Assembly: GCA_964514595.1 (NCBI GenBank)
Contig: CAZEQZ010000002.1
Coordinates: 29,812 to 93,811, forward strand
DNA: 64,000 nucleotides
Source: an uncultured Candidatus Saccharibacteria bacterium
Lineage (GTDB): Bacteria > Patescibacteriota > Dojkabacteria > SC72
Direction of reading: 5' to 3'
Shown here piece after piece: positions 49,833 to 64,000 of this stretch. The position numbers and the translations under genes are program-made. The notes below the pieces were generated by a model. The model ran no database searches, was not told the DNA's origin, and worked only from the letters and a program-made list of their open reading frames with translations. Within the stretch, counting starts at the first letter, position 1. Every line of letters begins with the position of its first letter.

Positions 49833-50762
49833 TTATAAATCCACATACCCCCTTAAAAACCCCTCATGCATCTCTATCCTTCCCCTATTAAATTCATTCA
49901 ATTCTTCAGAATAATAAGCTAAATACTCTATTATTCTAGATACCCAATACAATTCATCTAACTCCTTCTCTTCCTTTGTATAACTCATAAGAGAGTAATA
50001 CTCATCTACTACCTTATCCCCCAAATCAAAATGCCATATTAACATCCTAATTCTTGAAAAATCATATATAGGATCACCGAACATAGACTCTCCCCAATCT
50101 ATAATACCTGCAATATTATTTGTTTTTGGATTTACAAATAAATTTCTTTGATTATAGTCGGTATGTAATAGACAATAATTATCTTCCCTTATACCTACCT
50201 TTAAAAACTTAGAAATATACATATCTACACTCTTAAGTATCAGATCTTTATCTAAACCCTTCCTTTTACTAATCTCATCCCATTTAAGATATTCATCAGT
50301 ACTATCAAACTTAGAAAGATGAAATTCTTTCCAATTTCTTCTTTCATCATTATTTGTAATATACCCCACCCTATCCGAACCTATACTATGAATAACCCTT
50401 AATGATTCTATCATCGATGGTATGTATAGAGGAATCTCTTCTTTGGCTACAGACTCTAATAACGGGAATTGTATCTTCTCCATTACGAGCACAGGGATAT
50501 CATCTATTGATGCTTTTAAATATACTTTAGGAATTGGAATATTAAGATTATTTTTCTTAATTAGATCATATGCTCTTATATCCATTTCTACTCCTTCCCC
50601 TATCTTTACGACATATTCCTTATTATTTTCATCAAGAAAGGATACTATTTCACTATCCATACCCTTGGGAGATTCTGTAATCTTGGTAATTGAAATATTT
50701 AATTCTTTGGTAATTTTGTTAAGAATATTGTCAAAATTATTCCTAGTTTTGTCCATATTCAA
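49833..50762 (-). CDS. aminoglycoside-phosphotransferase-fold (APH/choline-kinase-like) kinase
   Basis: Catalytic LLHTDYNQRNLFV (HxDxxxxN) and IDWGESMFGDPIYD (DxG...D). Confidence 0.75.
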   Translation of the reverse strand: MNMDKTRNNFDNILNKITKELNISITKITESPKGMDSEIVSFLDENNKEYVVKIGEGVEMDIRAYDLIKKNNLNIPIPKVYLKASIDDIPVLVMEKIQFPLLESVAKEEIPLYIPSMIESLRVIHSIGSDRVGYITNNDERRNWKEFHLSKFDSTDEYLKWDEISKRKGLDKDLILKSVDMYISKFLKVGIREDNYCLLHTDYNQRNLFVNPKTNNIAGIIDWGESMFGDPIYDFSRIRMLIWHFDLGDKVVDEYYSLMSYTKEEKELDELYWVSRIIEYLAYYSEELNEFNRGRIEMHEGFLRGYVDL

Positions 50763-50909: not shown

Positions 50910-51302
50910 ATGAACTACAATCAAATTAACAAACAAAACCTACCTAAATGGGAAAATACTCTTAAATATATTACTGAGGTATTAAATAAGAATGATATTA
51001 AATACTATCTATCCTCCTCTGGATTACACTACATACTAGGTCAAGAAGTATACCCATATGATATAGATCTATTTATGTCTAAGGAGGATGTAAGAAGGGT
51101 ATACAAATTACTAACTAAGTACAAAGTATCTAACCTACACTATTGGGAAGAAGATTGTACTAAGTTATTAGAATTTCAAGGTACATACAATGACATACCC
51201 TTTGAAATATGTGAGTGGGAGAAAGAACCAGAGGAATTAAAGGAGGTGGAGTATAAGGATATCGAAGTTTATGCCTCCCCTATTAAATCTTCTATAGCAT
51301 AA
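50910..51302 (+). CDS. minimal nucleotidyltransferase-fold protein
   Basis: SSSGLHYILGQEVYPYDIDLF fits the Pol-beta NTase G[SG]-x9-13-D-x-D motif. 130 aa. Confidence 0.5.
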   Translation: MNYNQINKQNLPKWENTLKYITEVLNKNDIKYYLSSSGLHYILGQEVYPYDIDLFMSKEDVRRVYKLLTKYKVSNLHYWEEDCTKLLEFQGTYNDIPFEICEWEKEPEELKEVEYKDIEVYASPIKSSIA

Positions 51303-52267
51303 ATGATTTCGTTTACATCACTTCCATAGATTCTGTAAACCCCTTTATCATAAAGATTATAAATTAGATTCCTACGATTATTTCTTGTTATAGAATCATC
51401 CAAAGATGGTGTATGCGAAAGAAGATACCCAGAATCAGACATCACATGTGTAGCGACTCCTGAAATATGACGTGCTAACTTCTCTCCCAAGAATAAATTT
51501 GTCTTAATATCTTTTGGAGTAATTCTCTCTAAATGAATTTTCTCTCTACCTGTTGGATCTATATGTATTATGAAGGTGGAGTTAAGCTCAGAAATACCTT
51601 CTGATTTTCTTATACCCAGCTCCAAAGGATCTATCTTTATTTTATTCTCCCAACTACTACTTCCATTGTCAGGGAAATTCTCTCTCGATAAGGGGAGATG
51701 CCCAGAGAGAACAGCCGATTCTCTAACCATTAAATATTTCGTACCTCCAAATAAGAACACCTTATCTTCTTCAAGTAAAGGCCTCTCTAAAATAACCTGG
51801 TCATTCCCTATTAAAGAGTATCCCCTTAACCCAAGATTGACTGCTATAGTTGTCTTCCCAGCTCCTTGATTCCCCAAGAACAAAATTCCTTTCCCGCTTG
51901 GAGTCTCAACGGCAGATCCATGTGTTAAGGCTCCCCCCGCAAGTTGCCTCTCTCGTTCTGTTAGACATAGTGCTAAATGCAAAAGTGCTCTTCCTTGACT
52001 TATCTCCTCCTTTGGACAAGCTAGAATAAAACATGTCTTCTCTGGATTAACCTCCAAAGCTACTTCCTCTTGCTCTAAATGAATAACTGAATATTTAGAC
52101 TCATTGTCCTCCTCTTCATAAAAACTACAACTGGGGATACCACAATCATCATTAAATTCCTTGTCGAAATCTGCATATATATTAACTTTTCTCCCAGCAA
52201 CTTCTAGACCTTTCCAAAAAGGAACTCCTATCAATTCTTTTTCATTTATTTCTGAAGCCTCTATCAT
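51269..52267 (-). CDS. HPr-kinase C-terminal-domain-like P-loop kinase (HprK-related)
   Basis: HGSAVETPSGKGILFLGNQGAGKTTIAVNLGLRGYSLIGNDQVIL matches the HprK/P C-domain motif H-x-S/G-x-V-x(5)-G-x-L-x-x-G-x-S-G-x-GKS ... L-x-x-DD/ND-x-V. It is the last gene of the minus-strand operon. Confidence 0.65.
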   Translation of the reverse strand: MIEASEINEKELIGVPFWKGLEVAGRKVNIYADFDKEFNDDCGIPSCSFYEEEDNESKYSVIHLEQEEVALEVNPEKTCFILACPKEEISQGRALLHLALCLTERERQLAGGALTHGSAVETPSGKGILFLGNQGAGKTTIAVNLGLRGYSLIGNDQVILERPLLEEDKVFLFGGTKYLMVRESAVLSGHLPLSRENFPDNGSSSWENKIKIDPLELGIRKSEGISELNSTFIIHIDPTGREKIHLERITPKDIKTNLFLGEKLARHISGVATHVMSDSGYLLSHTPSLDDSITRNNRRNLIYNLYDKGVYRIYGSDVNEIIYAIEDLIGEA

Positions 52268-53502
52268 TACTCTTCTGCCTTGATATTATATACGGAAGGA
52301 AGAAGAACCTCTTCCTTTAGAATCTTCTGCGTCCAATCTCTTTTGGCCAGTATTCCTTTAATTAAACTTTCTAATTCCTTAGAGTTTATCTCTTTAGAAG
52401 AAAATACTGTTATCTCATGGGGAGAGAAAAATGGGTCTCCATTTCTGGTCATTACAAGAACTTCAACTTTACAATCAAAGTGCTCCGCTATTTCTCTTGC
52501 CATTTCATCAACTATTACTCCATAAACCTTACCAACATGATATACAGGATTCTTTCCCCAGGCAGCTTCCATTGAATATTTCCTCATCATAGGAATTATT
52601 CCTCTCCTATTGTTTCCCCTACCTACACATCCTTCTTCTCCAAAATCTGTGGCTGACCCTCCAGCTACAAGATAAGCTTTCTTGGCTGTGGTAATACCTT
52701 TCGCAAGTTGATCCTGGGTATTAATATGCAGTTCATATTCTAATTTCATATCTTTAAACCTTTTTTGGATATGGTCCTTTATTACCTGAACGATGTATTT
52801 TTTCTTCTCTTTATACTCTAAAGAATCCTTAATATCCTGCGCGAAGAAAGGAATACACATCGTTATACTATACTTATTATCTCTCCTAATAGTCATAACC
52901 TTTATGTCCTGCCCAATAAAAGAATATTTAGGATTCTTTTCTTCATCATAAAACAATCCTTCCAACTCTAGTGTCAGGCTCTCTGCAAAGGTTAAAGGCC
53001 AACAACCAACTACAGCAGATGTGTCATTAGCAAATATGTTTTTGTACTCTGGAAGATCCTCTACTGACTTAGGATTAAACCATCTGGGATTGCGAGAATA
53101 TTGCTTTGTTTCATTCATTATTATTAACCAATTTTCAGTATCAAATCTAGGCATAACTTTGTTAAGATAGGTTTTAACTGCGTCCTCAATGATTGACTGT
53201 ATGGGAATTTTTTTCCCATCAAAGGATCCACTCATCCTCCCGTTAACAAGAACCCTTACGGGCTCTGTGAATTTACCTTTTCCCCAATCAAATTCAGATA
53301 ACCCTCCCATAATACAAACTTTATCTACGTTATGATGTAGTACATACCCGAAATTATCCAAACAGTATTTTGAATAATCTATAGATATTCTTTCCGCTAA
53401 ACCGTCCGCTAACGTATCTGGATGTCCCCAACCCTTCCTCTCAACAATTTCTATATCATTGTCATCTGGGAATATATGCTTTGTTGTTTGATGTATATTC
53501 AT
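52267..53502 (-). CDS. S-adenosylmethionine synthetase, archaeal type (MAT; PF01941 family)
   Basis: IEIVERKGWGHPDTLADGLAE, ILHHN-like VLHHNVDKV, ANDTSAVVG, GQDIKVM, LHINTQD and GGSATDFGEEGCVGRGNNRRGIIPMMRKYSMEAAWGKNPVYHVGKVY are collinear with archaeal MAT (e.g. [20 protein letters not shown] ... MGDDGSVGRGNRVNGLITP...SGKNPVNHVGKIY). Confidence 0.85.
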   Translation of the reverse strand: MNIHQTTKHIFPDDNDIEIVERKGWGHPDTLADGLAERISIDYSKYCLDNFGYVLHHNVDKVCIMGGLSEFDWGKGKFTEPVRVLVNGRMSGSFDGKKIPIQSIIEDAVKTYLNKVMPRFDTENWLIIMNETKQYSRNPRWFNPKSVEDLPEYKNIFANDTSAVVGCWPLTFAESLTLELEGLFYDEEKNPKYSFIGQDIKVMTIRRDNKYSITMCIPFFAQDIKDSLEYKEKKKYIVQVIKDHIQKRFKDMKLEYELHINTQDQLAKGITTAKKAYLVAGGSATDFGEEGCVGRGNNRRGIIPMMRKYSMEAAWGKNPVYHVGKVYGVIVDEMAREIAEHFDCKVEVLVMTRNGDPFFSPHEITVFSSKEINSKELESLIKGILAKRDWTQKILKEEVLLPSVYNIKAEE

Positions 53503-53519
53503 TGTCTATACAAATAAAA

Positions 53520-54209
53520 TTATTTTAGATTCAAGAGATCTATTAACTCTGACAAACTCTCGATCATAGGATATTTTTTAGATGTTTCCTTATTCCTGTA
53601 CAAAACCAAATTATCTATCCCTGCAGTCGCTGCACCTTTTAGATATTCAATTTTGTCATCAACGAACATGATTTTATCTCCACCAACACCTATCTCGCTC
53701 AAAACATATTCATATGCCTTAGGATCAGGCTTCTCTAATCCTATCTCTTTAGATATAAATATATGATCGAAATATTTATATAGATTACCTATCTTTAATT
53801 CGTGGACTCTTCTAGAAGGTAGCGCATTTGAAAATATTCCTAAACGATATTTCTTGCCAAGAATCTTCAAAGCACTTATTGTATCTTCCTTCAACGCAAA
53901 ATCACCCTTCATTCTGCAGTTAGTCATTTTATTGATGAATTCTGTATCAAAATCTATTCCTAGGTAATCACAGATCTTTTTATGAAATTTGTCTAAGTAG
54001 GCTTTCTCTTTCTTAACTGTATTCATATTTTTAAAGGCCAGTTTCTCCGACTTAGTTTGCTCGTCTATAATTTTATCGAGCATCTTACGATATTCCTCTC
54101 TGGTGAGGTTCAGGAGCTTGGCTACATTTTCATCTTCATGGGAGACTTTATATACAAGCACATTCCCGACATCAAATAGTATATATTCTGGATTTTTTAC
54201 TTTCTTCAT
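53520..54209 (-). CDS. HAD-superfamily hydrolase (phosphatase)
   Basis: Motif I ILFDVGNVL (DxG/DxD type), motif III K...GIFSN and motif IV MFVDDKIEYLKGA. Confidence 0.75.
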   Translation of the reverse strand: MKKVKNPEYILFDVGNVLVYKVSHEDENVAKLLNLTREEYRKMLDKIIDEQTKSEKLAFKNMNTVKKEKAYLDKFHKKICDYLGIDFDTEFINKMTNCRMKGDFALKEDTISALKILGKKYRLGIFSNALPSRRVHELKIGNLYKYFDHIFISKEIGLEKPDPKAYEYVLSEIGVGGDKIMFVDDKIEYLKGAATAGIDNLVLYRNKETSKKYPMIESLSELIDLLNLK

Positions 54210-54222
54210 ATTTTATAATTTA

Positions 54223-55362
54223 TTAATTTATTTCTTTTTTTAACAAAAAAGCTTGCTCATTTAAAAGATCCTCGACCTCGGCAGATTTTTTCCCATCTAT
54301 CTCTTCAAAATATGATAAAACTCTAACAAGGTAGTGAACCAAGAGTTCTTTTGATAGATATTGAATAGAATCCTGGGATAACTCCGTTGAACAAATAATA
54401 TCTACCAATTCTCTCAATGTACAGATCCAATCATTTTTCGTATAAAGAATTTTTGAGGAGAGAAATTTCTCTATTTTATCTAAAGAACCTCGAAGGTAAT
54501 TAAACTCTGTCTCATGATATAACTTTTCAACTTCATCCTTCCTGTTTTGTATTGAAAGGTCACTTGGACGATTATATTGCTCTTGAATCGCCTCACAGTT
54601 AGTATCCTTATCAATCATTACACTCTTTCTATTTGAATTTAAACATAAATCTCTATTTAAGACTGAAATTAATGATTGAGCTACTTCCTCGAACATAGGA
54701 ATCATTTTACTAAAACTCGAATTGTGGATTTTCTCACCTAAGTAAACCTCTTTTAATTTCAATCCATTTAGCATTGCTGTTAGAGTCATAGTTATATCAA
54801 TACCATATTTATAGGAAGAATCATTCTCAAGGTTATTGAGGAGATATTTGGAAAAGTTTAATGTAAAGGCGAAATCTCCGGCTATGGGTTGACGAACGGA
54901 ATCTCCAAAAAGAGAAAATAATAGCGGATAACACAGATGATTAGTGGTGTTTCCTTCGTAACGGTTTCTTTTATAAACAGGCGTCACATAATCTACTTGC
55001 TCGTCCATTAAAGGTTTTAGTAATTTATATATCCATATTGGCTCAATAGACCTAAGATCACTATCTATTGTCCCCATGAAAGGAATTTCTGCTCCAACAG
55101 CATAATTCAAGAAATTTTTTATATTCTCCCCTTTCCCGATGTTATTTGTAGCTATATATAATTTTTGTACTCCCCCCGTATCAGCAATAAAAAACTCCTC
55201 CTTAGTTCGATCAGTACTGTTATTGTCAGCATTAATAATTACTGCCTTCTTCTCTGGGAAATACTCATTAATACCAAGTGCTACAATCTCCACCACATTC
55301 CTGATTGTTTTCTCTTCGTTTTTCGAAGGGATACATATGGCTATATCTATTTTATTATTCAT
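54223..55362 (-). CDS. GT-A fold glycosyltransferase (GT2/GT81-like, e.g. glycosyl-3-phosphoglycerate-synthase-like)
   Basis: IAICIPSKNEEKTIRNVVEIV ... IINADNNSTDRT and DSD (DxD) followed by a long helical C-terminal extension. Confidence 0.6.
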   Translation of the reverse strand: MNNKIDIAICIPSKNEEKTIRNVVEIVALGINEYFPEKKAVIINADNNSTDRTKEEFFIADTGGVQKLYIATNNIGKGENIKNFLNYAVGAEIPFMGTIDSDLRSIEPIWIYKLLKPLMDEQVDYVTPVYKRNRYEGNTTNHLCYPLLFSLFGDSVRQPIAGDFAFTLNFSKYLLNNLENDSSYKYGIDITMTLTAMLNGLKLKEVYLGEKIHNSSFSKMIPMFEEVAQSLISVLNRDLCLNSNRKSVMIDKDTNCEAIQEQYNRPSDLSIQNRKDEVEKLYHETEFNYLRGSLDKIEKFLSSKILYTKNDWICTLRELVDIICSTELSQDSIQYLSKELLVHYLVRVLSYFEEIDGKKSAEVEDLLNEQAFLLKKEIN

Positions 55363-55364
55363 AG

Positions 55365-56219
55365 TTACTGATACTGTAGATTAAGATTATGTAAAAGCTT
55401 CTTTAGATTATTCAAGGACTCTAAAGATCCATCTTTACAATGGGTTTCTATGGTTAAGAAAATTTTCTTTTTGTTATGATTATCCATAAATGTTTTTAAA
55501 ATCTCACTATAAGGAATATCGCCTTGTCCTAAAATACAAAATTCTTCCTTTTTAATAGAAAAATCTTTTAGATGAATATTCCCGCTAATATTGGGTAGTG
55601 AAGAAATTAAATCTTCCTTGCTGAACTCTCCTTCACAAGAGTATAAGTTTCCTATATCTAGTAATATATTTATATAATCTTCCTTCACATACTCTCTGAA
55701 ATTAATCAAATCCCTCATTGAGTGAATATTGCAGACTGGTTCGTTCTCTATTAATAATTCTATTTCACTTTCTCGACACAAGTTTACAAGTCGATTGTAA
55801 AGGGTTATTTCTTTTTGAAAAAACAATGGATCACATTCCTCTTGCATCCTTAAACCAGAAAAAATTCTAAGATATTGAGCTTTTAATTCTATTGCACATT
55901 GTAATGATTTATCTATCATTCGTATCTTTTCTTCATCTGAGACGGTACCTGAAACTCCAAATTCTGTGAAATTATTGTTACTCTCTGCGTGTTGAAACCA
56001 CTTAAATAACGGACTTGAGATACCACTAACCAATATCCCAGCCTGCTGAAGATTAAGTTTAAGTTCCGAAATCTCTCTTTCCGAAAGATTAACAATGTTT
56101 TTACCATTTATAGTTCGAATATCAATAAATTTCAATTTGTTTTCGATACAAAAATTTATCGCTTTCTTTATGTCATTACTAACCTCATCGTTAATTATCG
56201 AAAGATTTATTTTATCCAT
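55365..56219 (-). CDS. xylose-isomerase-like TIM-barrel protein (sugar phosphate isomerase/epimerase; IolE/IolI-like)
   Basis: Pattern ...FIDIRTINGKNIVNLSEREISELKLNLQQAGILVSGISSPLFKW... It is paralogous to ORF 59688 (...VELRSINNKNLLDFTNKEIFNLSKKLSTANLKPVALASPVFKW...). Confidence 0.6.
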   Translation of the reverse strand: MDKINLSIINDEVSNDIKKAINFCIENKLKFIDIRTINGKNIVNLSEREISELKLNLQQAGILVSGISSPLFKWFQHAESNNNFTEFGVSGTVSDEEKIRMIDKSLQCAIELKAQYLRIFSGLRMQEECDPLFFQKEITLYNRLVNLCRESEIELLIENEPVCNIHSMRDLINFREYVKEDYINILLDIGNLYSCEGEFSKEDLISSLPNISGNIHLKDFSIKKEEFCILGQGDIPYSEILKTFMDNHNKKKIFLTIETHCKDGSLESLNNLKKLLHNLNLQYQ

Positions 56220-57096
56220 TTATAGCTCTTTCCAATTTAATTTCCATTTTATGAATATTAAAATCAGGGACCTTCTTTCCTGTCCATAACTCAAAAGCCT
56301 TAATCCCCTGATATATCATCATTTGTAATCCCCCTACAGCTTTAGCTCCTGATATCTTCCTAGATTGTTTTAGAAATTCTGTATCTACTGGATTAAAGAC
56401 AACATCAAAAAACTTCTTTCCTTTGGAATTATTAGCCAACATGATTTTTGATAATATATGAGAGGGAATTATGCTCCCACCATCGTCAGGATGCATCCCA
56501 ACTGAAGTAGTATTAATAATCAAATCTGCATCAAGCAACCTATCCAGATGCTGCTCCAACTCTGAGAGAGAAAAACAATCTAAAATTAGTTCACTTGAGG
56601 AGAAATCTTTCTGTAAAATTTCTAATCTCCTTTTACTCCTATTAAAAACCGTTATATTTTTTGTAGATTTTTGCAAACCTGACAGTACAGCACGAGAAGC
56701 TCCACCTGCCCCGAAAATAACTACATTGTCAGAAGTACGAATCTTCCCAAAATTTTGTTCTATCGTACTGATAGCCCCATATTCATCTGTGTTGTAACCT
56801 ATCAATCTTCCATCCTTATTTACGACGGTATTAACTGCCCCTACAGATCTCGCACTTTGGTCAATTTCATCTAAATATTTCATAATTTCGATCTTATACG
56901 GAAGTGTTACGTTGAAACCTACAAAATTTAAACCCCTCATAGCTGATATTGCTCTATTAAGGGCCCTTCCATTTTCCTTAGGAATTCTTATCTTAACGTG
57001 AGAATATTCTATATGACAAAGTTCAGACAATTCTTTAAAAAGTATTGGAGAAACACTATGTTCTACAGGATCTCCGATTAAACCAGATATCTTCAT
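56212..57096 (-). CDS. aroE: shikimate/quinate 5-dehydrogenase family protein
   Basis: GLIGDPVEHSVSPILF (substrate-binding motif), VVIFGAGGASRAVLSGL (Rossmann) and NTTSVGM. Confidence 0.75.
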   Translation of the reverse strand: MKISGLIGDPVEHSVSPILFKELSELCHIEYSHVKIRIPKENGRALNRAISAMRGLNFVGFNVTLPYKIEIMKYLDEIDQSARSVGAVNTVVNKDGRLIGYNTDEYGAISTIEQNFGKIRTSDNVVIFGAGGASRAVLSGLQKSTKNITVFNRSKRRLEILQKDFSSSELILDCFSLSELEQHLDRLLDADLIINTTSVGMHPDDGGSIIPSHILSKIMLANNSKGKKFFDVVFNPVDTEFLKQSRKISGAKAVGGLQMMIYQGIKAFELWTGKKVPDFNIHKMEIKLERAING

Positions 57097-58076
57097 CTTA
57101 CTACGTTTGCCAATTTAAATAGGTTTTCCATTTGCCAATTTGAAAAATCCCCACGATTTGGAACAAAATCAGAATTAATTTCTTTAGAGGTAAAGGTCTT
57201 TATTATGTTTTTCAGGCTATTATCATAAACTCGCCTCCCTCTATCACTATTGAATATCTCTATTCTGGAGAAACATCTCTTATCATTTGGTATGGGTTCA
57301 AACTGAGCAAATATTTTTTCTTTCTTTTTTGTTTCAATAGAAAGGACTCTGTAATTCTGGATATCTCCGGTACCAGGCAGAAGGAATCTTTTGTTTTTAA
57401 TCTTATAATCACCAACTAGAGATTGATACATCCTAATATCGACATCCTCACAAGTAAGTTTAAAACAAAGATCATCTTCTAAAAAACTATCTCCACACTT
57501 CTTTTTCACATCTACAACCTCAATGTTGTACAAACCCAATGAATACAAGATTGATAGCATATGGGGGATCTCTATCCCTAGACCTCCCAGTTTTTCATCT
57601 ACAAAACGTCCCCTAAGGGTATCCTCCCTCCTATCCTTTGAAAATTCTATTTCGATTGAAGTAATTTTCTGATCTTTTTCCAAGAGATACTCTTTTATTT
57701 CTCTGATTGTATCTGAATATAGATAGTTCTCCGACACATTTACTTTACATTGCGGATTTTGATTTATAAGTTTTTTATATTTTCTATAATCTTCAGGATT
57801 ATTACATAAGGGCTTCTCTACAAGGATATTAGCATCTGGTTTCAAAGAAATTATCTTTTCCAAATCCTTGACATGCCTGCTTGTCGGAGTACAGATATCA
57901 AACATGAAATTTTCTAAATCCAGATCAGCATTCAATTTTTTCAATGTTTTGTATGGGATTTCTTTTTTATAAGGGTCAAAAACATAAACGTCAAAACCAA
58001 GGGATTTATAAATTCTACTCTTAAGGGAACCAATTTTTCCGTATCCTATTATTAAAATGCTTTCCATAATATACAC
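57093..58076 (-). CDS. Gfo/Idh/MocA-family NAD(P)-dependent oxidoreductase
   Basis: N-terminal Rossmann fold ILIIGYGKIGS. EKPLCNNPED, the conserved EKP motif. It is the first gene of the minus-strand operon. Confidence 0.8.
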   Translation of the reverse strand: MYIMESILIIGYGKIGSLKSRIYKSLGFDVYVFDPYKKEIPYKTLKKLNADLDLENFMFDICTPTSRHVKDLEKIISLKPDANILVEKPLCNNPEDYRKYKKLINQNPQCKVNVSENYLYSDTIREIKEYLLEKDQKITSIEIEFSKDRREDTLRGRFVDEKLGGLGIEIPHMLSILYSLGLYNIEVVDVKKKCGDSFLEDDLCFKLTCEDVDIRMYQSLVGDYKIKNKRFLLPGTGDIQNYRVLSIETKKKEKIFAQFEPIPNDKRCFSRIEIFNSDRGRRVYDNSLKNIIKTFTSKEINSDFVPNRGDFSNWQMENLFKLANVVR

Positions 58077-58198
58077 ACCCAGTGTATATATTATACACGA
58101 AAGAAATTAAAGTCAAGTCCCCTTCTAGAGTTGCAATTAAACCCTATAGGATGTTATGATTCTTCATATAGGATAAATAAAATTGACCATATCTCTAT

Positions 58199-58771
58199 AT
58201 GAAGATCGTATTACTTGGATCAAAAAATGGAAGAGAAAAAATACCTAAAGTTTTTGATTCTATAATAAAAACCTTAGAGGATCTCTCAATAGAAATTCTT
58301 GGACCATACACACAATCTTATGAAGAAGTTTTGAGTCATGAAGAAATGAAGATTTCAAATCCTAATGTAAGGCATGCTCTCTTTATGAGAAAGGTAATAA
58401 GACAAGCGGATGCATTAATAGTTGAGACAACTTTCGATGGTTTCGCCCTAGGACATGAATCAACAGTAGCTCTAGAAGAATACAAACCAGTACTTGCAAT
58501 CTCTCAAAGTTCTAAAGATTTTTCTTTTATACACGATACAAAATTTCGTTATAACTCATATAAAAAACATACCGATATTCCACCCATTATCAAAGATTTT
58601 ATCGAATATTACAATCAGAATTTTAAAGTATTTAGACTCAACATCCTTTTACATCAAAGACAAGTTAATTATCTAAGGTGGATATATCAGAAAAGAAACA
58701 TTAACCGTTCGTTATTTATCCGAAGTTTAATAGATAAAGCTATTGATAAAGATTCTGATTATCCTAATTAA
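58199..58771 (+). CDS. nucleoside 2-deoxyribosyltransferase-like domain protein with a C-terminal helical extension
   Basis: MKIVLLGS...ADALIVETTFDGFALGHESTVALEEYKPVLAI matches the Nuc_deoxyrib_tr pattern (aD.vvA.ldg...D.GT.fE.G.A.a.gKPv). The C-terminal 70 aa are basic and helical. Confidence 0.4.
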   Translation: MKIVLLGSKNGREKIPKVFDSIIKTLEDLSIEILGPYTQSYEEVLSHEEMKISNPNVRHALFMRKVIRQADALIVETTFDGFALGHESTVALEEYKPVLAISQSSKDFSFIHDTKFRYNSYKKHTDIPPIIKDFIEYYNQNFKVFRLNILLHQRQVNYLRWIYQKRNINRSLFIRSLIDKAIDKDSDYPN

Positions 58772-58783
58772 GAATATTTATTC

Positions 58784-59677
58784 ATGAAGATAGAAGACTA
58801 TAATGTGATATTTATAACGCTAGATTCTTTACCATATCAAACGGCCGTATTGTCACCTAACCTCTTTCTGAATAAGATTTCGACACTAAAAAAAGCTGAA
58901 ACACATGGTACCTACACCTACCCAGCACACCACTCTTTTTTCATTGGATTAATTCCTAGATTAATAGGTAACAGTAGCAACAAATATTTGGGAAAGTATT
59001 CCCAGATCTGGAGAAATAATTCTGCAAATCAATCAGAGAAGAAGGTCGCAATTTTTTTCAAAGAAAAAAGCATTATTGACTTTTACAAAAATAAAAATCA
59101 TCAAACTATTGGTTTTGGGGGAGTAGAATTTTTTAATACTTATAAAAAAAGTAATACATTGCCAAATCTTTTCGAAGAATTTGTTTTCTTCGGTCCTAAA
59201 GAGAAATTAGACAAATTAGAAAGAATCCCTAGAAGCCCGAATTGGTTTCCTTTAAATAACCTTGATTACATTACTCATAAGATAAAAGACAACCCTTTCT
59301 TCCTTTTCATCAATTCTATAGCGACTCATATTCCTTATGATAATCCTAATACCCATTTATCGGACAATGATAAAAAAATAATTGCAAAGATCTACAGAGA
59401 GCATGATCTAAAAATCCCAAGAACGAAGAGGAATATTCCTATATCCTCCGAGGAAATACTTCGGATTCGAAAAATTCAACAAGATTCATTTTCTTGGGCA
59501 GATACGCAAATTAAAAAGCTAATAGACCTTATTCCAAGGAAAAGACCAACTATTCTAATAGTTTGTAGCGATCATGGGGAAGAATTTGGGGAGTTTGGGA
59601 GGTTCGGTCATGCCCACTTTGCACGCACAATTATGTATGTTCCATATTGGGATTGTATTTTAGATAAAAATAGCTAA
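58784..59677 (+). CDS. alkaline-phosphatase-superfamily metalloenzyme (sulfatase/phosphopentomutase-like)
   Basis: N-terminal IFITLDSLPY and C-terminal CSDHGEEFGEFGRFGHAH (the SDHGE motif). Confidence 0.55.
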   Translation: MKIEDYNVIFITLDSLPYQTAVLSPNLFLNKISTLKKAETHGTYTYPAHHSFFIGLIPRLIGNSSNKYLGKYSQIWRNNSANQSEKKVAIFFKEKSIIDFYKNKNHQTIGFGGVEFFNTYKKSNTLPNLFEEFVFFGPKEKLDKLERIPRSPNWFPLNNLDYITHKIKDNPFFLFINSIATHIPYDNPNTHLSDNDKKIIAKIYREHDLKIPRTKRNIPISSEEILRIRKIQQDSFSWADTQIKKLIDLIPRKRPTILIVCSDHGEEFGEFGRFGHAHFARTIMYVPYWDCILDKNS

Positions 59678-59687
59678 CTATTAACTC

Positions 59688-60569
59688 ATGAATATTGCTT
59701 ATACTATAAATTTGGATGAATTTGGACAAGATCTTGATATTTCGATACGCAAGTGCCAAGAATTAGGAATTCAGAATGTTGAACTCAGATCTATCAATAA
59801 TAAAAACCTTCTAGACTTCACAAACAAAGAAATCTTTAACTTATCGAAAAAATTAAGTACTGCAAATCTTAAACCTGTTGCCCTTGCATCTCCTGTTTTT
59901 AAATGGTTTTATTTCGAGGAAACCTCGTCGTTCATATCGTTTGATAGCTATTATTTCGAGAAGTTTTTATCAATTCAAAAAAAGAAAAAATATATATTCC
60001 GCACTTTTGAAATAGCCTCTATGCTGAAAATACCAATTATACGAGTCTTCTCATACATAAAGGATGACTCCATCCCTATCTCTACTGTTCCTGAATTATT
60101 TAAAGATTCTCTTTTTAAACTAGCTATTTCTCTAGCAAAGAAGAACTCTCTTTCCTTATACATAGAAAATGAACCTATCTGTTTAGTAAGAGATGCCGAT
60201 ACGGTGAACAATCTAATCCCCTATATAAAGGATTCCCCTATAAAGGTTTGGTTTGATATATCAAACTTTTTCATGGTTGGAGACGATTTGAGTAAGACTT
60301 TTCTAAATAAGATTTTACCTTTTACTGATTATATCCAATTTAAAGATTTTTCACGAAAGGAAAATTTTGTATACGTTCCTTTAATGACAGGAGATGTTCC
60401 TTATGAAAATATACTAAACAATATTAACAGCTTTTATAAAGAAAATGATACTGTCTTTTTTAATGTAGAAACTCATATAGAAGAAGACAAAGATGACGCT
60501 ATAAAAGAATCTTTTAAGAATTTACGAAATACTGTGAGAAAAATCTCGTCCAATACTAGTACCTTCTAA
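59688..60569 (+). CDS. xylose-isomerase-like TIM-barrel protein, paralog of ORF 55365
   Basis: Collinear similarity to the 55365–56219 product along the whole length. Confidence 0.6.
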   Translation: MNIAYTINLDEFGQDLDISIRKCQELGIQNVELRSINNKNLLDFTNKEIFNLSKKLSTANLKPVALASPVFKWFYFEETSSFISFDSYYFEKFLSIQKKKKYIFRTFEIASMLKIPIIRVFSYIKDDSIPISTVPELFKDSLFKLAISLAKKNSLSLYIENEPICLVRDADTVNNLIPYIKDSPIKVWFDISNFFMVGDDLSKTFLNKILPFTDYIQFKDFSRKENFVYVPLMTGDVPYENILNNINSFYKENDTVFFNVETHIEEDKDDAIKESFKNLRNTVRKISSNTSTF

Positions 60570-60640
60570 ATATTATAACTTCATATTACTGAGTTGATTA
60601 CATAATGTATAAAAATATTTAATATTGATATAATCTTTCT

Positions 60641-61501
60641 ATGGGAATATTATTCGCTTTATTATCATCACTCTTTTTCGCATTAAGCTATACAAGCTTA
60701 AAAAGAAGCTACCAGGAATTCCCTCCCTCCGTAGCATTCTTCTTCGATATGATCTTTGGATTACTAATATGGATACCCTTCTCCTTACTCTTAGGCTTCA
60801 ACTTCTCAGATATTCTAACAGTACTACCGTATGCACTACTCAGCGCAATTCTTTCAGAAGCACTTGTTTTCTATATATTCTCCAAAGGAGAAATCAGCAT
60901 CACAGGCACAATAATCGCTTCTTACCCTGTATACACAATCCTTTTTGCAACGATACTTCTAGGGGAGACACTACAACCTCTTCATTGGTTCTTTGTATTT
61001 TTAACAATCATAGGAACTATCTTAACTTCGCTTCCAGACAGAATATCTAAGGAAGAATTTAAAAAGAAGGAATACATTCTTTGGGCAATAGCAGGAGCTA
61101 CTGGTATTGGTTTATCCGATACTATATCCAAGGGAGTGATAGATAGAACATCAGCATCAGCCTTTCTTTTCTCTCTAGCCTTCATGCAAATACCTGTGAG
61201 TCTTCTCTATTTAAAACTAGAAAAGGAGGATCCAAAACATATTTTTAAATTTATAAAAGATATTAAAAGATACAAATATTCGATTATAGGATCACTTTTG
61301 AATGTGTTAGGATTAATAGGATTATGGTTGGCCTTTGAGTATACATATGTCTCAATAGCTTCTCCATTAACAGCAGCATACCCTGGATTAATGATTGTAC
61401 TTGCTGTTTTATGGTTGAAGGAAAAGCCTAGGATTATAGAATTAGTAGGACTTGCTATAATAATGATAGGAATAATTGGTATAAGCTATTTCTATATTTA
61501 A
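60641..61501 (+). CDS. EamA/DMT-family transporter
   Basis: 10 TM helices arranged as two EamA repeats (GILFALLSSLFFALSYTSLKRS...). Confidence 0.75.
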   Translation: MGILFALLSSLFFALSYTSLKRSYQEFPPSVAFFFDMIFGLLIWIPFSLLLGFNFSDILTVLPYALLSAILSEALVFYIFSKGEISITGTIIASYPVYTILFATILLGETLQPLHWFFVFLTIIGTILTSLPDRISKEEFKKKEYILWAIAGATGIGLSDTISKGVIDRTSASAFLFSLAFMQIPVSLLYLKLEKEDPKHIFKFIKDIKRYKYSIIGSLLNVLGLIGLWLAFEYTYVSIASPLTAAYPGLMIVLAVLWLKEKPRIIELVGLAIIMIGIIGISYFYI

Positions 61502-62461: not shown

Positions 62462-64000
62462 TTAAGCATACTGGCTCTCTGATTTATTAATACCTTTATA
62501 TAGAAAGGATAAAACTATAACTGAGCTCAGAACTATTACTACCCACCAAGGAAACTTTTTACTATTCTCTACAATTATTTCATGTACCTCATCTTCCTTC
62601 CCTAAAACTAAACTCTGTTCATACTCCTTTCCATCATATATAACCCTTATTATATACTCACCCTTTTCAAAATCCTGAATTACAACTTCTCCATTCTCAT
62701 CAGTTAAATACTCTCTACCCTCAATAATTACCTTCGCACCAGCTAATACATTTCCCTTATTATCAACTATCCTTATCCTATACTCTACACTTTTCTCATC
62801 ATCCTTTTCTTCTACTACAATCTCCTCTACCTCATCCTCTTCCACTTCCTCTTCTAATGGAGGAATATATGTATATGTAACATTCCTCCTCGTTATTACT
62901 GTTGTTAAAGATGGTGTTGTATCTATAACAGGAGATGTAGGAGTTTCTGTTTGAGGTTGAGAAATTACATATGTAAATTCAGAGACAGAAGAAGCAATAC
63001 CATCTATACAACCCACAGCTCTAATTACAGATGTAACGGATATAGGTATGGAAGTTGTATACACTGTACCTGTACTACATGTAGGTACTGATCCATTAAC
63101 TGTATACCTTATACTACTACTTCCCGTTGAAGAAAGAGATACATTAAAACCAGTAGAATATGTACCTGAAGCTACATTAGAGACCGGTGCAGACGGCATA
63201 ACTAAATTTTGTATACCTAATACAGGATATCCTTTTCCATCGTATACATTACTCCATATTGTATCAAAATCCCAATCAGGATCTGTATTATATACCTTAT
63301 GTGAATATGTCTTAAATATATCCATACTACCAGCTCTTTCATAGTGATCTGCAGATTCATCATTATCAAAAGGAGAAGGTCCATTGGGGCTCATCACTAA
63401 ACCAATTGCTCTAACAATACTACTAGACCACCAGCTATTATTTAATACAGCCAAATCTAAATCACAATCTTCACCTTCACAGAAAGTGATATTTAATCTC
63501 CCAATTAAACCACCAACATATACTTTCTCATAACTACTGCTGTAGTTTTCTAACACTAAATTAGCAAAATTATTTACAATCTTAAGAAAAAAAACAGTTA
63601 TTCTTTCAACAAAAGGTTTTCCAAGGATATTGACCATATCAGAAAGAAGACCCTCTTCCATAAATTCAGCCCCTATTAAACCACCAATAGCCGTTTCTAT
63701 ACCACTAGAACCGATATCATTTATATCTACACTGGTATTACTATATGAATTCTCAATATCTGAAACTATCGTAACACCTGCTAAGCCACCTAAATAAGGG
63801 GCATATTGATCAACCTCAAAGGCCTCACTGGTAGATTCCCATTTGGACATATCAAAAGATCCTGTGTTATACGAGTTCTTAATAATTCCATTAACCCCTA
63901 TCCCAAGTAAACCACCAACCCCATCTAATAGTATCATATTAGAAAGTACTAACTGTGTGGTAATATCACCTACATTGTATGATTCTTGGATATCAATTAA
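62462..64000 (-). CDS. 5'-partial cell-surface protein: CHB_HEX_C-like beta domain, CarboxypepD_reg-like domain and a C-terminal TM anchor
   Basis: The frame stays open to the window edge upstream of the ATG at 63937, so the gene is probably longer. GTYSTGFNVSLSSTGSSSIRYTVNGSVPTCSTG resembles the chitobiase/hexosaminidase C-terminal domain. YRIRIVDNKGNVLAGAKVIIEGREYLTDENGEVVI is transthyretin-like. An acidic EEEVEEDEVEE spacer follows. The C-terminus is WWVVIVLSSVIVLSFLY. Confidence 0.6.
   Translation of the reverse strand, partial: LIDIQESYNVGDITTQLVLSNMILLDGVGGLLGIGVNGIIKNSYNTGSFDMSKWESTSEAFEVDQYAPYLGGLAGVTIVSDIENSYSNTSVDINDIGSSGIETAIGGLIGAEFMEEGLLSDMVNILGKPFVERITVFFLKIVNNFANLVLENYSSSYEKVYVGGLIGRLNITFCEGEDCDLDLAVLNNSWWSSSIVRAIGLVMSPNGPSPFDNDESADHYERAGSMDIFKTYSHKVYNTDPDWDFDTIWSNVYDGKGYPVLGIQNLVMPSAPVSNVASGTYSTGFNVSLSSTGSSSIRYTVNGSVPTCSTGTVYTTSIPISVTSVIRAVGCIDGIASSVSEFTYVISQPQTETPTSPVIDTTPSLTTVITRRNVTYTYIPPLEEEVEEDEVEEIVVEEKDDEKSVEYRIRIVDNKGNVLAGAKVIIEGREYLTDENGEVVIQDFEKGEYIIRVIYDGKEYEQSLVLGKEDEVHEIIVENSKKFPWWVVIVLSSVIVLSFLYKGINKSESQYA

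Follow-up and report, generated by a model that had tools for sequence, protein, structure and literature searches.

What is made by an operon in which a methionine adenosyltransferase (MAT) is encoded next to a P-loop kinase, a glycosyltransferase (GT), a phosphatase and three candidate ring-tailoring enzymes is the question raised by one locus in the 64,000-nucleotide stretch of DNA analysed here (the window). Seven minus-strand genes at 51269-58076 do form one real operon. The open reading frames on both strands lie exactly where the preliminary description had placed them (Table 1), and a check of them gave intergenic gaps of at most 17 bp, the junctions in operon order being overlaps of 4 and 8 bp, gaps of 2, 13 and 17 bp and an overlap of 1 bp. 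All seven genes, in unchanged order and together with a divergent gene for a 190-aa protein (p190), recur in lineages with 41-64% protein identity and unrelated flanks (identical gene order in L005/L009, L007 and L021), far more than chance would give; scattering in relatives, which the preliminary description had named as an outcome that would refute it, is the opposite of what is seen. Its family assignments were all verified by profile search, those for the oxidoreductase, the 'HprK-like' kinase and the 190-aa protein being the weaker ones, and its remark that the composition matches no characterised pathway holds, in that none with the same gene set was found in family libraries, PDB, PADLOC or the literature.

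Table 1. Features of the operon and of its divergent side (window positions).
Feature	Position	Strand	Match or remark
Gene 1, Gfo/Idh/MocA-type NAD(P) oxidoreductase (GFO), 327 aa from GTG	57093..58076	-	PF01408 at threshold
Gene 2, AroE-type shikimate-dehydrogenase-family reductase (SDH), 294 aa	56212..57096	-	TIGR00507
Gene 3, xylose-isomerase-like TIM barrel (TIM), 284 aa	55365..56219	-	PF01261 2e-15
Gene 4, GT-A glycosyltransferase, GpgS/MGS-like, 379 aa	54223..55362	-	PF00535 5e-12; DxD D100/D102
Gene 5, HAD-IA phosphatase, 229 aa	53520..54209	-	PF00702/PF13419
Gene 6, archaeal-type MAT, 411 aa	52267..53502	-	PF01941 3e-91
Gene 7, P-loop phosphotransferase, HprK/PEPCK-fold, 332 aa	51269..52267	-	start overlaps MAT stop by 1 bp
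Divergent intergenic region, operator-like repeats and back-to-back promoter-like sites	58077..58198	.	
p190, DNPH1/NDT-fold domain ~1-140 (predicted) and RHH-like tail ~143-184	58199..58771	+	AF2/Foldseek
STM4013-family alkaline-phosphatase-superfamily hydrolase	58784..59677	+	PF00884 8e-11; NF038075 1e-31
TIM2, second TIM barrel	59688..60569	+	PF01261 2e-12
EamA/DMT transporter, 286 aa	60641..61501	+	PF00892 2e-31

With wider sampling (about 70 loci in 17 kinase lineages), the operon proves to be the lineage-specific version of a widespread, undescribed cluster that spans CPR/Patescibacteria-like bacteria and six Streptomyces species. Its invariant core consists of a MAT subfamily, a GpgS-like GT and the kinase, whose gene directly follows that of MAT. 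After dereplication the GT is found in 17/17 kinase lineages; MAT is present in all 14 of those with contigs extending upstream, and when sampling starts from MAT the kinase is found in 6/6. Before dereplication, MAT lies beside the kinase in 40 of 54 loci and elsewhere within the locus in 13. Around this core three slots vary. That for the phosphatase is occupied by a HAD protein here and by the unrelated folds of HD_4 or ComB-like proteins in other lineages. A carboxylate-capping slot, absent in the window, is filled elsewhere, often as a fusion with the GT, by a methyltransferase or by a CofE-like glutamate ligase, the latter present in 12/17 kinase lineages. The third is the ring-tailoring trio of GFO, TIM and SDH. 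Similarities to GpgS, CofE and ComB all lie under the curated equivalog cutoffs, except for one CofE-like protein (222.6 against 180.65 bits). Fusions (GT::CofE, GT::methyltransferase and TIM::GFO, the last in most CPR loci) link the steps, and a UDP-glucose 6-dehydrogenase gene adjoins one cluster (L073). ComB-like and CofC-like genes also occur in some versions, outside the window. The Streptomyces version, in the order TIM, GFO, MAT, kinase, GT, CofE-like, SDH, is under purifying selection (dN/dS 0.15-0.55 over all genes, 0.18-0.30 for MAT).

By its sequence, the cluster MAT is a distinct archaeal-type subfamily. The window copy reaches none of the NCBIfam equivalog cutoffs for MAT (NF003362, 416 against 481 bits), and the subfamily carries the motif 'GEEG / WFxP..DLPE', its gating loop (WFxP..DLPE) being rebuilt and 4 aa longer. 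Asp283, at the position that contacts ribose and the methionine amine, is replaced by Glu in all 30 cluster MATs and, among the closest homologues, in 119 of 120. Intact are the catalytic His, the methionine-carboxylate ligands (H62, N64, N161), Asp201 (ribose) and Tyr271 (stacking). The archaeal type by itself is no oddity here, as the nearest named relatives are from CPR (Andersenbacteria, Harrisonbacteria), where this type is normal; what is notable is the near-obligate linkage to the kinase and the fact that Streptomyces retains it under purifying selection. A SAM-consuming enzyme is recognisable in neither the window version nor the Streptomyces version.

The kinase represents a new P-loop family of HprK/PEPCK fold. 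Of the earlier label 'HprK-like' the fold stands, but the protein is equally PEPCK-like, with resemblance to this small-acid kinase across about 212-380 positions, and is below the HprK cutoffs of both Pfam (26.3 against 33.3 bits) and NCBIfam. For the GT, the only solved relatives are GpgS proteins; the match to NF010496 (GpgS; 2e-19) reaches 69.7 of the 262 bits of the cutoff, that to PF21969 is weak, and a C-terminal region of ~140 aa is extra relative to GpgS. Presence of DxD in 40/40 cluster GTs argues for DxD-dependent, and hence NDP-sugar-using, enzymes. The best NCBIfam matches of the HAD protein are nucleotidase-type HADs, all below cutoff, and there is weak similarity to enolase-phosphatase (6e-6).

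In the ring trio the window GFO is at the bare Pfam threshold (24.1 against 24 bits) and has no PDB match by sequence. Orthologues from L010 and L022 match GFO strongly, and their nearest relatives are sugar and NDP-sugar 3-dehydrogenases, the L022 domain being nearest 3q2i/3q2k (1e-34), DgpA and glucuronide 3-dehydrogenase, and a sugar or ring 3-dehydrogenase is the activity proposed for gene 1 on this resemblance. The start of gene 1 is probably the ATG at 58067, which gives the 324 aa called in L001, not the GTG at 58076. SDH exceeds the NCBIfam aroE cutoff (231.8 against 200.2 bits), has 1nvt as its best solved relative (2.7e-55) and retains the substrate and catalytic residues S14, S16, T61, K65, N86, D102 and Q244, with Y215F changed; judged by these features it is a canonical AroE-type enzyme, in a family whose members also include a keto-sugar reductase. 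The AroE residues, carboxylate-binding ones included, are kept across 26 cluster SDHs. For the TIM barrel, NCBIfam matches to ketose 3-epimerases are weak and a PDB sequence search gave no match; fused to GFO in other lineages, it is proposed to be a keto-ring isomerase, epimerase or dehydratase partnering gene 1. The label 'IolG/IolE-like' is thus too specific, given the 3-dehydrogenase relatives of the GFO orthologues and the AroE type of the SDH. As the trio is missing from some lineages (L023, L050/53), it is accessory.

Between the operon and the divergent genes, a palindrome (ATATACAC/GTGTATAT) at 58069-58089 lies over the operon start, and TATAGGAT occurs twice with a spacing of 22 bp (58145, 58167); ACAC/GTGT half-sites are also found in L005 and L007. 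Promoter-like hexamers are at 58116-58088 (-) and 58131-58160 (+), such matches being not above chance frequency in the region, and no Rfam family matches there. The p190 protein has no Pfam match, and a profile search of PDB ranked Rcl/DNPH1 first at a non-significant E of 0.4. Its AF2 model (pLDDT 84) matches DNPH1 by Foldseek (E 5e-5, TM 0.63-0.75) and also BcmB, from which the N-terminal domain is predicted to have the DNPH1/Rcl fold of the nucleoside 2-deoxyribosyltransferase superfamily; in L021 the orthologue matches RHH_9, though weakly. Only 7 homologues occur among 5.8e9 proteins, and the gene is conserved in divergent position in L005, L007, L009 and L021. The p190 protein is likely a local regulator sensing a nucleotide-like ligand, and possibly instead an N-glycosidase. 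Of the divergent module as originally drawn, only this gene is conserved with the operon. The sulfatase-like STM4013-family gene and TIM2, a paralogue of the first TIM barrel (29% identity, E 2e-34), have no counterparts in any other locus compared, and EamA is seen only in the window's own strain; all three are lineage-specific and outside the conserved system.

Our tentatively favoured reading, held at slightly less than even confidence, is that the operon is a version of a biosynthetic cluster making a glycoside through kinase, GT and phosphatase together with ring tailoring, every chemical step being inferred from family resemblance. The kinase would phosphorylate a small carboxylate-bearing acceptor, the GT would glycosylate the phospho-acceptor and the phosphatase would then strip the phosphate, as happens with GpgS/GpgP and in other glycoside syntheses that use a phosphorylated acceptor. 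GFO, TIM and SDH may between them take a six-membered ring through oxidation, isomerisation or dehydration, and reduction back; the ring is proposed to be carboxylated because of the AroE residues kept in the cluster SDHs. It could be a uronic acid or of shikimate/quinate type, although a shikimate-type ring would have no evident source, since no shikimate pathway is known in CPR-type bacteria. In other lineages the carboxylate would be capped last with glutamate or methyl. SAM made in situ would be required by the pathway, presumably to supply methyl groups in versions whose GT carries a fused methyltransferase. The product is probably an undescribed sugar-acid metabolite, most likely a glycoside, soluble or envelope-bound.

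The absence of GFO, SDH, TIM and GT from one locus (L008), in which HAD, MAT and kinase are kept, suggests MAT, and not the GT, as the possible main partner of the kinase. It is on the whole unlikely that the essential unit is MAT and kinase, perhaps with the phosphatase. On this reading the kinase would be a protein-serine kinase/phosphorylase, or a partner handling PPi/PPPi, and would either regulate SAM synthesis or be coupled to it energetically; the sugar genes would form an accessory glycosylation module that is co-located yet separable. Against it, the GT accompanies the kinase in every lineage, usually directly after it, and Streptomyces retains all seven genes under purifying selection. 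The kinase lacks the HprK N-domain besides falling under the HprK cutoffs, PEPCK aligns over more of its length, and no gene for an HPr-like substrate is found nearby.

Somewhat less likely again is use of SAM as a building block, with its adenosyl, ribosyl or aminocarboxypropyl group incorporated to yield a SAM-derived nucleoside or a thio/sulfonium-sugar conjugate. By analogy with arsenosugars and the mycobacterial methylthioxylose cap, the nearest cases, phosphorylation would be cryptic and later reversed. Retention of MAT in a Streptomyces cluster without methyltransferase or radical-SAM enzyme would be explained, as might the Glu at position 283 and the rebuilt gating loop; nucleotide-type accessories (HD_4/SpoT-like, DNPH1-fold p190, nucleotidase-like HAD matches) and a CofC-like neighbour nearest the 'arsenosugar' family TIGR04282 point the same way. 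However, the invariant DxD indicates an NDP-sugar rather than SAM as GT donor, MAT keeps all its catalytic and methionine-carboxylate ligands, known SAM-cleaving or SAM-transferring families are not present, MAT in CPR-type genomes presumably supplies ordinary SAM too, and the TIGR04282 match is below cutoff and outside the window.

The frequency of the CofE-like ligase, one above the CofE cutoff, with ComB-like (2-phosphosulfolactate phosphatase) and CofC-like genes in some versions, raises the idea of a side chain like that of F420 or folate, e.g. an oligoglutamylated glycosyl- or phospho-2-hydroxyacid (lactate or glycerate), as a cofactor tail or novel cofactor. GpgS-like GTs use 3-phosphoglycerate and a PEPCK-like kinase fits a C3 acid, but the window version has no CofE-, CofC-, CofD- or ComB-like gene, FO/deazaflavin and pterin genes are seen in no locus, and the known F420 and folate tails are made without AroE-type or GFO enzymes, leaving this quite improbable. 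Catabolism of inositol, quinate/shikimate or glycosides by GFO, TIM and SDH, as in IolG/IolE, QuiC and DgpA/B/C-type pathways, is more doubtful still and hardly to be expected: degradation of inositol and of 3-keto-glycosides typically involves a GFO paired with a TIM barrel, the GFO matches include DgpA and inositol dehydrogenases, and the SDH is AroE/quinate-dehydrogenase-like, but IolB/C/D/J, aldolase and uptake genes are absent from the core, the DxD GT, the ligase and methyltransferase fusions and MAT are biosynthetic features, and the trio is the part that the cluster can do without. The salvage shunt for SAM by-products (MTA, SAH, 5'-deoxyadenosine) that the preliminary description had offered beside a small glycoside or cyclitol-type molecule, the option that the evidence favours, is extremely improbable: MAT within the operon, the N-glycosidase-type fold of p190 and the enolase-phosphatase similarity of the HAD protein would suit it, but no nucleosidase/phosphorylase, MTR kinase, isomerase, aldolase or dioxygenase is found among the window genes, p190, restricted to a single lineage, ends in a tail of DNA-binding type, fusions of a DxD GT to a glutamate ligase or methyltransferase make no sense there and indicate biosynthesis, and Streptomyces already has standard salvage.

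Among known systems, HPr kinase/phosphorylase and ATP-dependent PEP carboxykinase share with the cluster kinase the catalytic-domain fold, Walker A, the preceding His and the following Asp. It differs in being ~200 aa shorter than PEPCK, in its own invariant residues (E104, R107, E262, R266, D290, R298) and in having MAT as genomic partner rather than HPr or gluconeogenesis genes. Archaeal-type MAT structures (PF01941; TkMAT, PfMAT, SsMAT, MjMAT) are full-length homologues with the same catalytic and ligand residues, from which the cluster MAT is set apart by Asp283 to Glu, the longer loop, its sub-cutoff scores and an almost constant kinase neighbour. Coenzyme F420 CofC and CofE and coenzyme M ComB, which all handle small phospho-2-hydroxyacids and their glutamylation, have their counterparts in other cluster versions and none in the window, CofG/H, CofD and sulfolactate genes being lacking; the ligase is fused to a glycosyltransferase, an arrangement we know of nowhere in F420 synthesis. 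Pairing or fusion of GFO with a xylose-isomerase-like TIM barrel recalls WlbA-type NDP-sugar 3-dehydrogenases, DgpA/DgpBC and IolG/IolE, and the SDH recalls the AroE step of the shikimate pathway, but the cluster loci are without a WlbC-type aminotransferase, C-glycoside or inositol catabolic genes or other shikimate-pathway genes, and coupling of GFO, TIM and SDH to GT, kinase and MAT is undescribed. The synthesis of glucosylglycerate and mannosylglycerate (GpgS with GpgP, MpgS with MpgP) resembles the cluster in having a DxD GT-A enzyme beside a phosphatase, a phosphorylated, carboxylate-bearing acceptor being glycosylated and then dephosphorylated; apart from the sub-cutoff score and C-terminal extension of its GT, the cluster differs in adding to this pair a kinase, MAT, ring oxidoreductases and, elsewhere, a glutamate ligase, none of which those pathways have.

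The seven minus-strand genes, encoding in order a Gfo/Idh/MocA-type oxidoreductase (GFO), a shikimate dehydrogenase-family enzyme (SDH), a TIM barrel, a glycosyltransferase (GT), a HAD phosphatase, an S-adenosylmethionine (SAM) synthetase (MAT) and a P-loop kinase, are tightly packed, with three junctions overlapping (by 4, 8 and 1 bp) and three separated by 2, 13 and 17 bp in the ORF listing, which reproduces exactly the coordinates of the preliminary description. A 122-bp intergenic region separates them from four plus-strand genes that diverge from its far side. No terminator-like site was found on the minus strand within the operon, and promoter-like hexamers are without evidential weight, since they are no commoner here than chance allows in AT-rich DNA. 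Riboswitch control was rejected, with Rfam matching nothing in the 122-bp leader and tRNAs alone across the window. Palindromic elements shared by three lineages, and a pair of direct repeats, may constitute an operator or a translational hairpin (see Table).

The immediate surroundings include a downstream phosphotransferase gene and a small ORF without a family on the opposite strand, neither of which is kept in other versions of the operon. Further away, a Sua5/TsaC::TsaE fusion, present also in the related locus L007 and so characteristic of this lineage of small-genome bacteria, adjoins the TsaD gene. Two large surface-type proteins look like adhesins, and sortase-type surface proteins are also among the gene content. 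A defence-system role was rejected, as PADLOC returned zero matches for ten proteins at E ≤ 1e-3.

Table. Coordinates of features in the window and in homologous loci on other contigs (L numbers)
Feature	Location	Strand	Remarks
Seven-gene operon	window 51269-58076	-	
p190	window 58199-58771	+	190 aa
STM4013/SEN3800-family alkaline-phosphatase-superfamily (sulfatase-fold) hydrolase, TIM2 (second TIM barrel), EamA transporter	window 58784-61501	+	hydrolase model 1e-31; TIM2 at 59688-60569
Palindromic ACAC/GTGT elements	window 58066-58094; L007:4198-4214; L005:4148-4158/4236-4246		over start of first operon gene
Direct repeats TATAGGAT	window 58145-58174		two copies, 22 bp apart, between divergent genes
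APH-family phosphotransferase	window 49833-50762	-	directly downstream of operon
130-aa ORF	window 50910-51302	+	3′ end overlaps that of kinase gene by 34 bp
Sua5/TsaC::TsaE fusion	window 40264-41343	-	
TsaD	window 39168-40271	-	
1808-aa surface-type protein	window 30108-35534	-	fn3, CarboxypepD_reg, SpaA-like domains
491-aa surface-type protein	window 62462-63937	-	CHB_HEX_C, GLUG, CarboxypepD_reg domains
IS200-type Y1 transposase	L022:4194-4592		between MAT and kinase
GT::class-I SAM-dependent methyltransferase fusion	L072:10185-12089		
CofC-like/DUF2064 protein	L023:17537-18193; L038:15087-15821		near Andersenbacteria-type cluster
Second GT2-family GT, EpsD/MftF-like	L071:8624-9586		320 aa; also in 13 other groundwater CPR loci

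Far from being scattered in relatives, the genes recur in four loci whose kinases are 44-55% identical to that of the window (L005, L007, L009 and L021), each with all seven in identical order, a divergent gene of ~190 aa alongside and per-gene identities of 41-64%, on flanks that are unrelated (Mur ligases, HisRS, or LpxC/LysRS). Because gene order is kept across divergent lineages, the operon is a selected unit. A natural deletion is pertinent to its internal organization: locus L008, on an ERZ27293233 contig from a closely related strain, encodes a kinase identical to that of L007, is devoid of p190, GFO, SDH, TIM and GT, and retains HAD, MAT and kinase, with class-I LysRS directly upstream of HAD. 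The sugar-tailoring half is thus dispensable, with the HAD-MAT-kinase trio kept.

Three sources led to the wider family. A one-genome-per-species scan contained no close relative of the source organism, but six Streptomyces species in it have distant homologues of the kinase; searching metagenomes with a more inclusive kinase alignment gave 47 further loci; and three look-ups from the MAT side were added. All loci were annotated with reference proteins, and dereplication at 70% identity left 17 kinase lineages. Every one of the 17 has a GpgS-like GT, and all 14 whose contigs reach upstream have MAT, which adjoins the kinase in 8 and lies at another place in the locus in 6; with sampling from the MAT side, the kinase is found in 6/6. 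Across the 17 lineages a CofE-like ligase occurs in 12, SDH in 11, and TIM and GFO in 9. The most frequent architecture is SDH, a TIM::GFO fusion, MAT, kinase, an HD_4 hydrolase and a GT::CofE fusion. Among the variants, that of Andersenbacteria has MAT, kinase, CofE and GT with a CofC-like gene nearby, L022 has a ComB-like phosphatase, L073 has both a CofE-like ligase and HAD, adjoined by UDP-glucose 6-dehydrogenase, and L072 comprises SDH, MAT, kinase and a GT::methyltransferase fusion, the methyltransferase domain standing where other lineages have the CofE-like ligase and making this the sole version with an obvious SAM consumer. The L022 copy may be decaying, with a transposase gene between MAT and kinase and the upstream SDH apparently split into two ORFs. 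These comparisons establish the cluster's gene content, order, fusions and conservation, and, as read from the sequences, the catalytic motifs of MAT, kinase, GT and SDH are intact. A Nudix hydrolase was rejected as a member: a strict Nudix-box scan places one within 2.5 kb of the cluster in 2/51 loci, although Pfam marks Nudix genes near several, and the association is taken to be inconsistent. In the groundwater CPR loci with a second GT, its gene, encoded on the other strand, is found 2-3.6 kb downstream of that for the kinase, and L072 also has a polysaccharide deacetylase there; such neighbors hint that the cluster is connected with the making of envelope glycans.

In Streptomyces (L010-L015) the operon consists of TIM, GFO, archaeal-type MAT, kinase, GT, CofE-like ligase and SDH, the MAT being 37% identical to that of the window. 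With dN/dS at 0.15-0.55 (0.18-0.30 for MAT), purifying selection acts on each of the seven genes, and several have a GC3 of 0.78-0.83 against 0.94-0.96 in the flanks, which would be consistent with foreign origin. Recent acquisition from within CPR diversity was rejected, as in a neighbor-joining tree the MATs of Streptomyces branch beside those of CPR bacteria as their sister clade and not among them. Streptomyces own a bacterial MetK besides, and given this and the purifying selection, the extra MAT must be retained for a reason. In the CPR/Patescibacteria carriers, on the other hand, the MAT of this cluster is probably the sole SAM synthetase.

That the MAT is of archaeal type, as proposed from the sequence at the outset, is borne out by a full-length match to PF01941 far above the gathering score (306.6 bits, cutoff 27; residues 10-387; 3e-91), its closest named relatives being in Candidatus Andersenbacteria and Harrisonbacteria. 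Together with the Sua5::TsaE fusion and the sortase-type surface proteins, these relatives suggest that the source is a bacterium of CPR/Patescibacteria type with a small genome. The MAT nevertheless falls below the NCBIfam equivalog cutoff (best NF003362, 415.9 bits against 481), as does the Streptomyces cluster MAT (428.1 against 481). In the TkMAT structure the active site comprises His33, His62, Asn64, Asn161, Asp201, Tyr271, Asp283 and Asp144/Leu145, with Asp283 touching the ribose and the methionine amine, Asp201 the ribose, and Tyr271 stacking (PMC3853416). The catalytic His, the three methionine-carboxylate ligands, ribose-contacting Asp201 and the stacking Tyr are unchanged in 30/30 cluster MATs; Asp283 is replaced by Glu in 30/30, and in the same 30/30 the gating loop is longer and rebuilt with a conserved WFxP..DLPE, so that the Asp144/Leu145 loop is unalignable, though the conserved ‘DLPE’ may substitute for it. 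Of the nearest 120 database MATs, 119 have GEEG and 116 the loop motif. By sequence, then, the cluster MATs form a distinct subfamily whose members are most likely still SAM synthases.

The kinase is more removed from its named relatives. Its scores of 26.3 against PF07475 (Hpr_kinase_C; cutoff 33.3) and 27.6 against TIGR00679 (cutoff 240) derive from a match restricted to ~55 residues round the P-loop, full-length HprK structures match it over 141-151 residues only, and its N-terminal half aligns with PEPCK, not with the HprK N-terminal domain. No HPr/PTS gene is present in any locus examined. The earlier label ‘HprK-like’ can accordingly be kept for the catalytic domain, which has the HprK-type fold with Walker A, upstream His and downstream Asp, but not for family membership by cutoff, the N-terminal domain or an HPr substrate. 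Among 5.8 billion clustered proteins only 11 homologues share words with the window kinase, and the cluster defines a new kinase family of ~300 representative clusters (309 at E ≤ 1e-10) as well as the MAT subfamily. A weak precomputed match of the Andersenbacteria kinase is to ScmC (PF27840), a name for which the literature yielded nothing but unrelated acronyms. P0010, a 316-aa homologue and the representative of 1364 sequences, matches 61% of the kinase at 37% identity under the label ‘serine/threonine protein kinase, partial [Streptococcus pyogenes]’; either a Firmicutes relative of the kinase or contamination from oral CPR bacteria may lie behind it. The similarity to HprK, together with the gene set of L008, lends support to a first, less probable alternative to the preferred biosynthetic reading, namely that the kinase mainly serves or regulates MAT.

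For the GT, the call of a GT-A enzyme is upheld: it belongs to GT2/GT-A, and its best specific model is that of the GT81 enzyme glucosyl-3-phosphoglycerate synthase (GpgS, NF010496), though under cutoff (69.7 bits against 262; 2e-19), GpgS also being the only related solved structure (2.6e-5). Its DxD (D100-x-D102) recurs without exception in the 40 cluster GTs compared, and for that reason it is taken as a conventional NDP-sugar-dependent GT-A, SAM being disfavored as its glycosyl donor. The same invariance, along with the unchanged methionine ligands of MAT, counts against a second alternative, in which SAM is a building block of the product. That possibility draws on the fact that Streptomyces keep MAT in a cluster lacking any methyltransferase, on nucleotide-type accessory proteins, and on the CofC-like neighbor being nearest the TIGR04282 ‘arsenosugar biosynthesis glycosyltransferase’ family (94.7 bits, under the cutoff of 134); in the arsenosugar pathway, sugars are made from the adenosyl moiety of SAM. 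L023 also has a gene for SAM decarboxylase upstream. An F420- or folate-like tail, catabolism and salvage all find little support.

Two further positions in the cluster are filled differently by lineage. HAD (HAD-IA in the window), HD_4 and ComB-like enzymes substitute for one another, and displacement of this non-orthologous kind strongly indicates that the pathway needs a dephosphorylation step. The other position is taken by a CofE-like Glu ligase or a methyltransferase, often fused to the GT, the window lineage being without either; the fusions suggest that the GT product bears a carboxylate that is later capped.

GFO, TIM and SDH make up a ring trio. SDH passes TIGR00507 (aroE; 231.8, cutoff 200.2) and matches 1nvt at 2.7e-55. 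Taking the E. coli AroE sites to be catalytic Lys65/Asp102 and ligands S14, S16, T61, N86, Y215 and Q244, 7/8 are intact in the window SDH, the exception being Y215F; T61, K65, N86, D102 and Q244 are present in 26/26 cluster SDHs, all 26 retain the carboxylate-binding serines, and Y215F is found in CPR members. Other aro genes are absent from the window and every locus, and the SDH family includes a keto-sugar reductase. The GFO assignment is marginal in the window, where the Rossmann domain is at the gathering score (24.1 against 24), and solid through its orthologues in L010 (58.6 bits) and L022 (83.7 bits), with C-terminal domains matched too. A sequence search of the PDB gave nothing for the operon TIM or the window GFO; the L022 GFO domain is closest to 3q2i and 3q2k, the WlbA UDP-GlcNAcA 3-dehydrogenases, followed by DgpA and glucuronide 3-dehydrogenase. 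The evidence from GFO and SDH would point to a carboxylated six-membered ring, of uronic acid or shikimate/quinate type. Family models also confirm the remaining initial assignments (SDH, xylose-isomerase-like TIM barrels, HAD phosphatase, alkaline-phosphatase superfamily, EamA). The exception is the IolG-like and IolE-like designations, which claim more than the evidence allows. The myo-inositol catabolic set (IolG and IolE with IolB, IolC, IolD and IolJ/IolA) is not matched, TIGR04380 (iolG) giving 15 bits against 355, with only distant GFO/TIM-barrel similarity and no IolB/C/D/J-type family in the operon.

On the plus strand, p190 matches neither Pfam nor NCBIfam, and a profile search of the PDB gives Rcl at E 0.4. 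Its earlier likening to nucleoside 2-deoxyribosyltransferases finds no sequence match to a family model, but the fold is there: the modeled N-terminal domain (pLDDT 84) is of the DNPH1/Rcl/BcmB type (Foldseek DNPH1 E 5e-5, target TM 0.63-0.75), invariant G85-H86-E87 lines up with GYE of Rcl, and an acidic residue is at the position of the catalytic Glu. Behind this domain comes a tail of two helices; in the L021 orthologue a weak RHH match is seen. We read p190 as a putative ligand-sensing local regulator. The hydrolase, TIM2 and EamA genes trail it at gaps of 12, 10 and 71 bp, TIM2 being a paralogue of the operon TIM (29% identity). This trio is confined to the window's own strain and may be a lineage-specific add-on, processing or transporting the product further.

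The reading that we prefer is that the operon is of a phospho-acceptor glycoside biosynthetic type. Kinase, GT and phosphatase would act in turn to yield a glycoside on a carboxylate-bearing acceptor, a carboxylated ring would be oxidised, isomerised and reduced, and a glutamate or methyl cap would be optional. There is a real chance that the operon will prove something more unusual, centered on the MAT-kinase pair. One joint reading of this sort, which we consider improbable, is that the core makes a new SAM-dependent or SAM-derived glycoside, a cofactor-like molecule or envelope precursor near-universal in CPR/Patescibacteria, with the kinase physically partnering MAT, which, if so, would account for the near-inseparability of their genes. 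As part of that reading, the glycoside would be glutamylated or methylated in most lineages, a few Streptomyces would share the system by ancient transfer or common descent, and the kinase might phosphorylate SAM or the acceptor, possibly with tri- or pyrophosphate released by MAT.

CPR/Patescibacteria genomes are tiny, with scant biosynthesis, and many, the source organism among them, still keep a six-to-eight-gene cluster around MAT; a pathway conserved in reduced, host-dependent bacteria is likely to bear on the envelope, cofactor supply or host interaction. Named species whose strains are deposited, among them S. pathocidini NRRL B-24287 and S. stephensoniae DSM 40932, carry the Streptomyces version, and S. 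montanisoli is another culturable carrier, so that the product could be found by experiment, providing a route into CPR biochemistry. Interest rests on conservation in genome-reduced CPR, the enclosure of what is probably their sole SAM synthetase, and accessibility in Streptomyces.

Nothing relevant came from searching the literature for this combination of genes, for bacterial MATs of archaeal type, or for CPR together with F420 ligase, MAT or SDH, and no characterised pathway matching the cluster was found. By cutoff, the cluster MAT, kinase and GT are outside the curated families (MAT equivalogs, HprK and GpgS, respectively). The families closest to the components are archaeal MAT, HprK/PEPCK, GpgS, AroE and WlbA/DgpA-type dehydrogenases, and the closest known logic is that of GpgS/GpgP-type glycoside synthesis.
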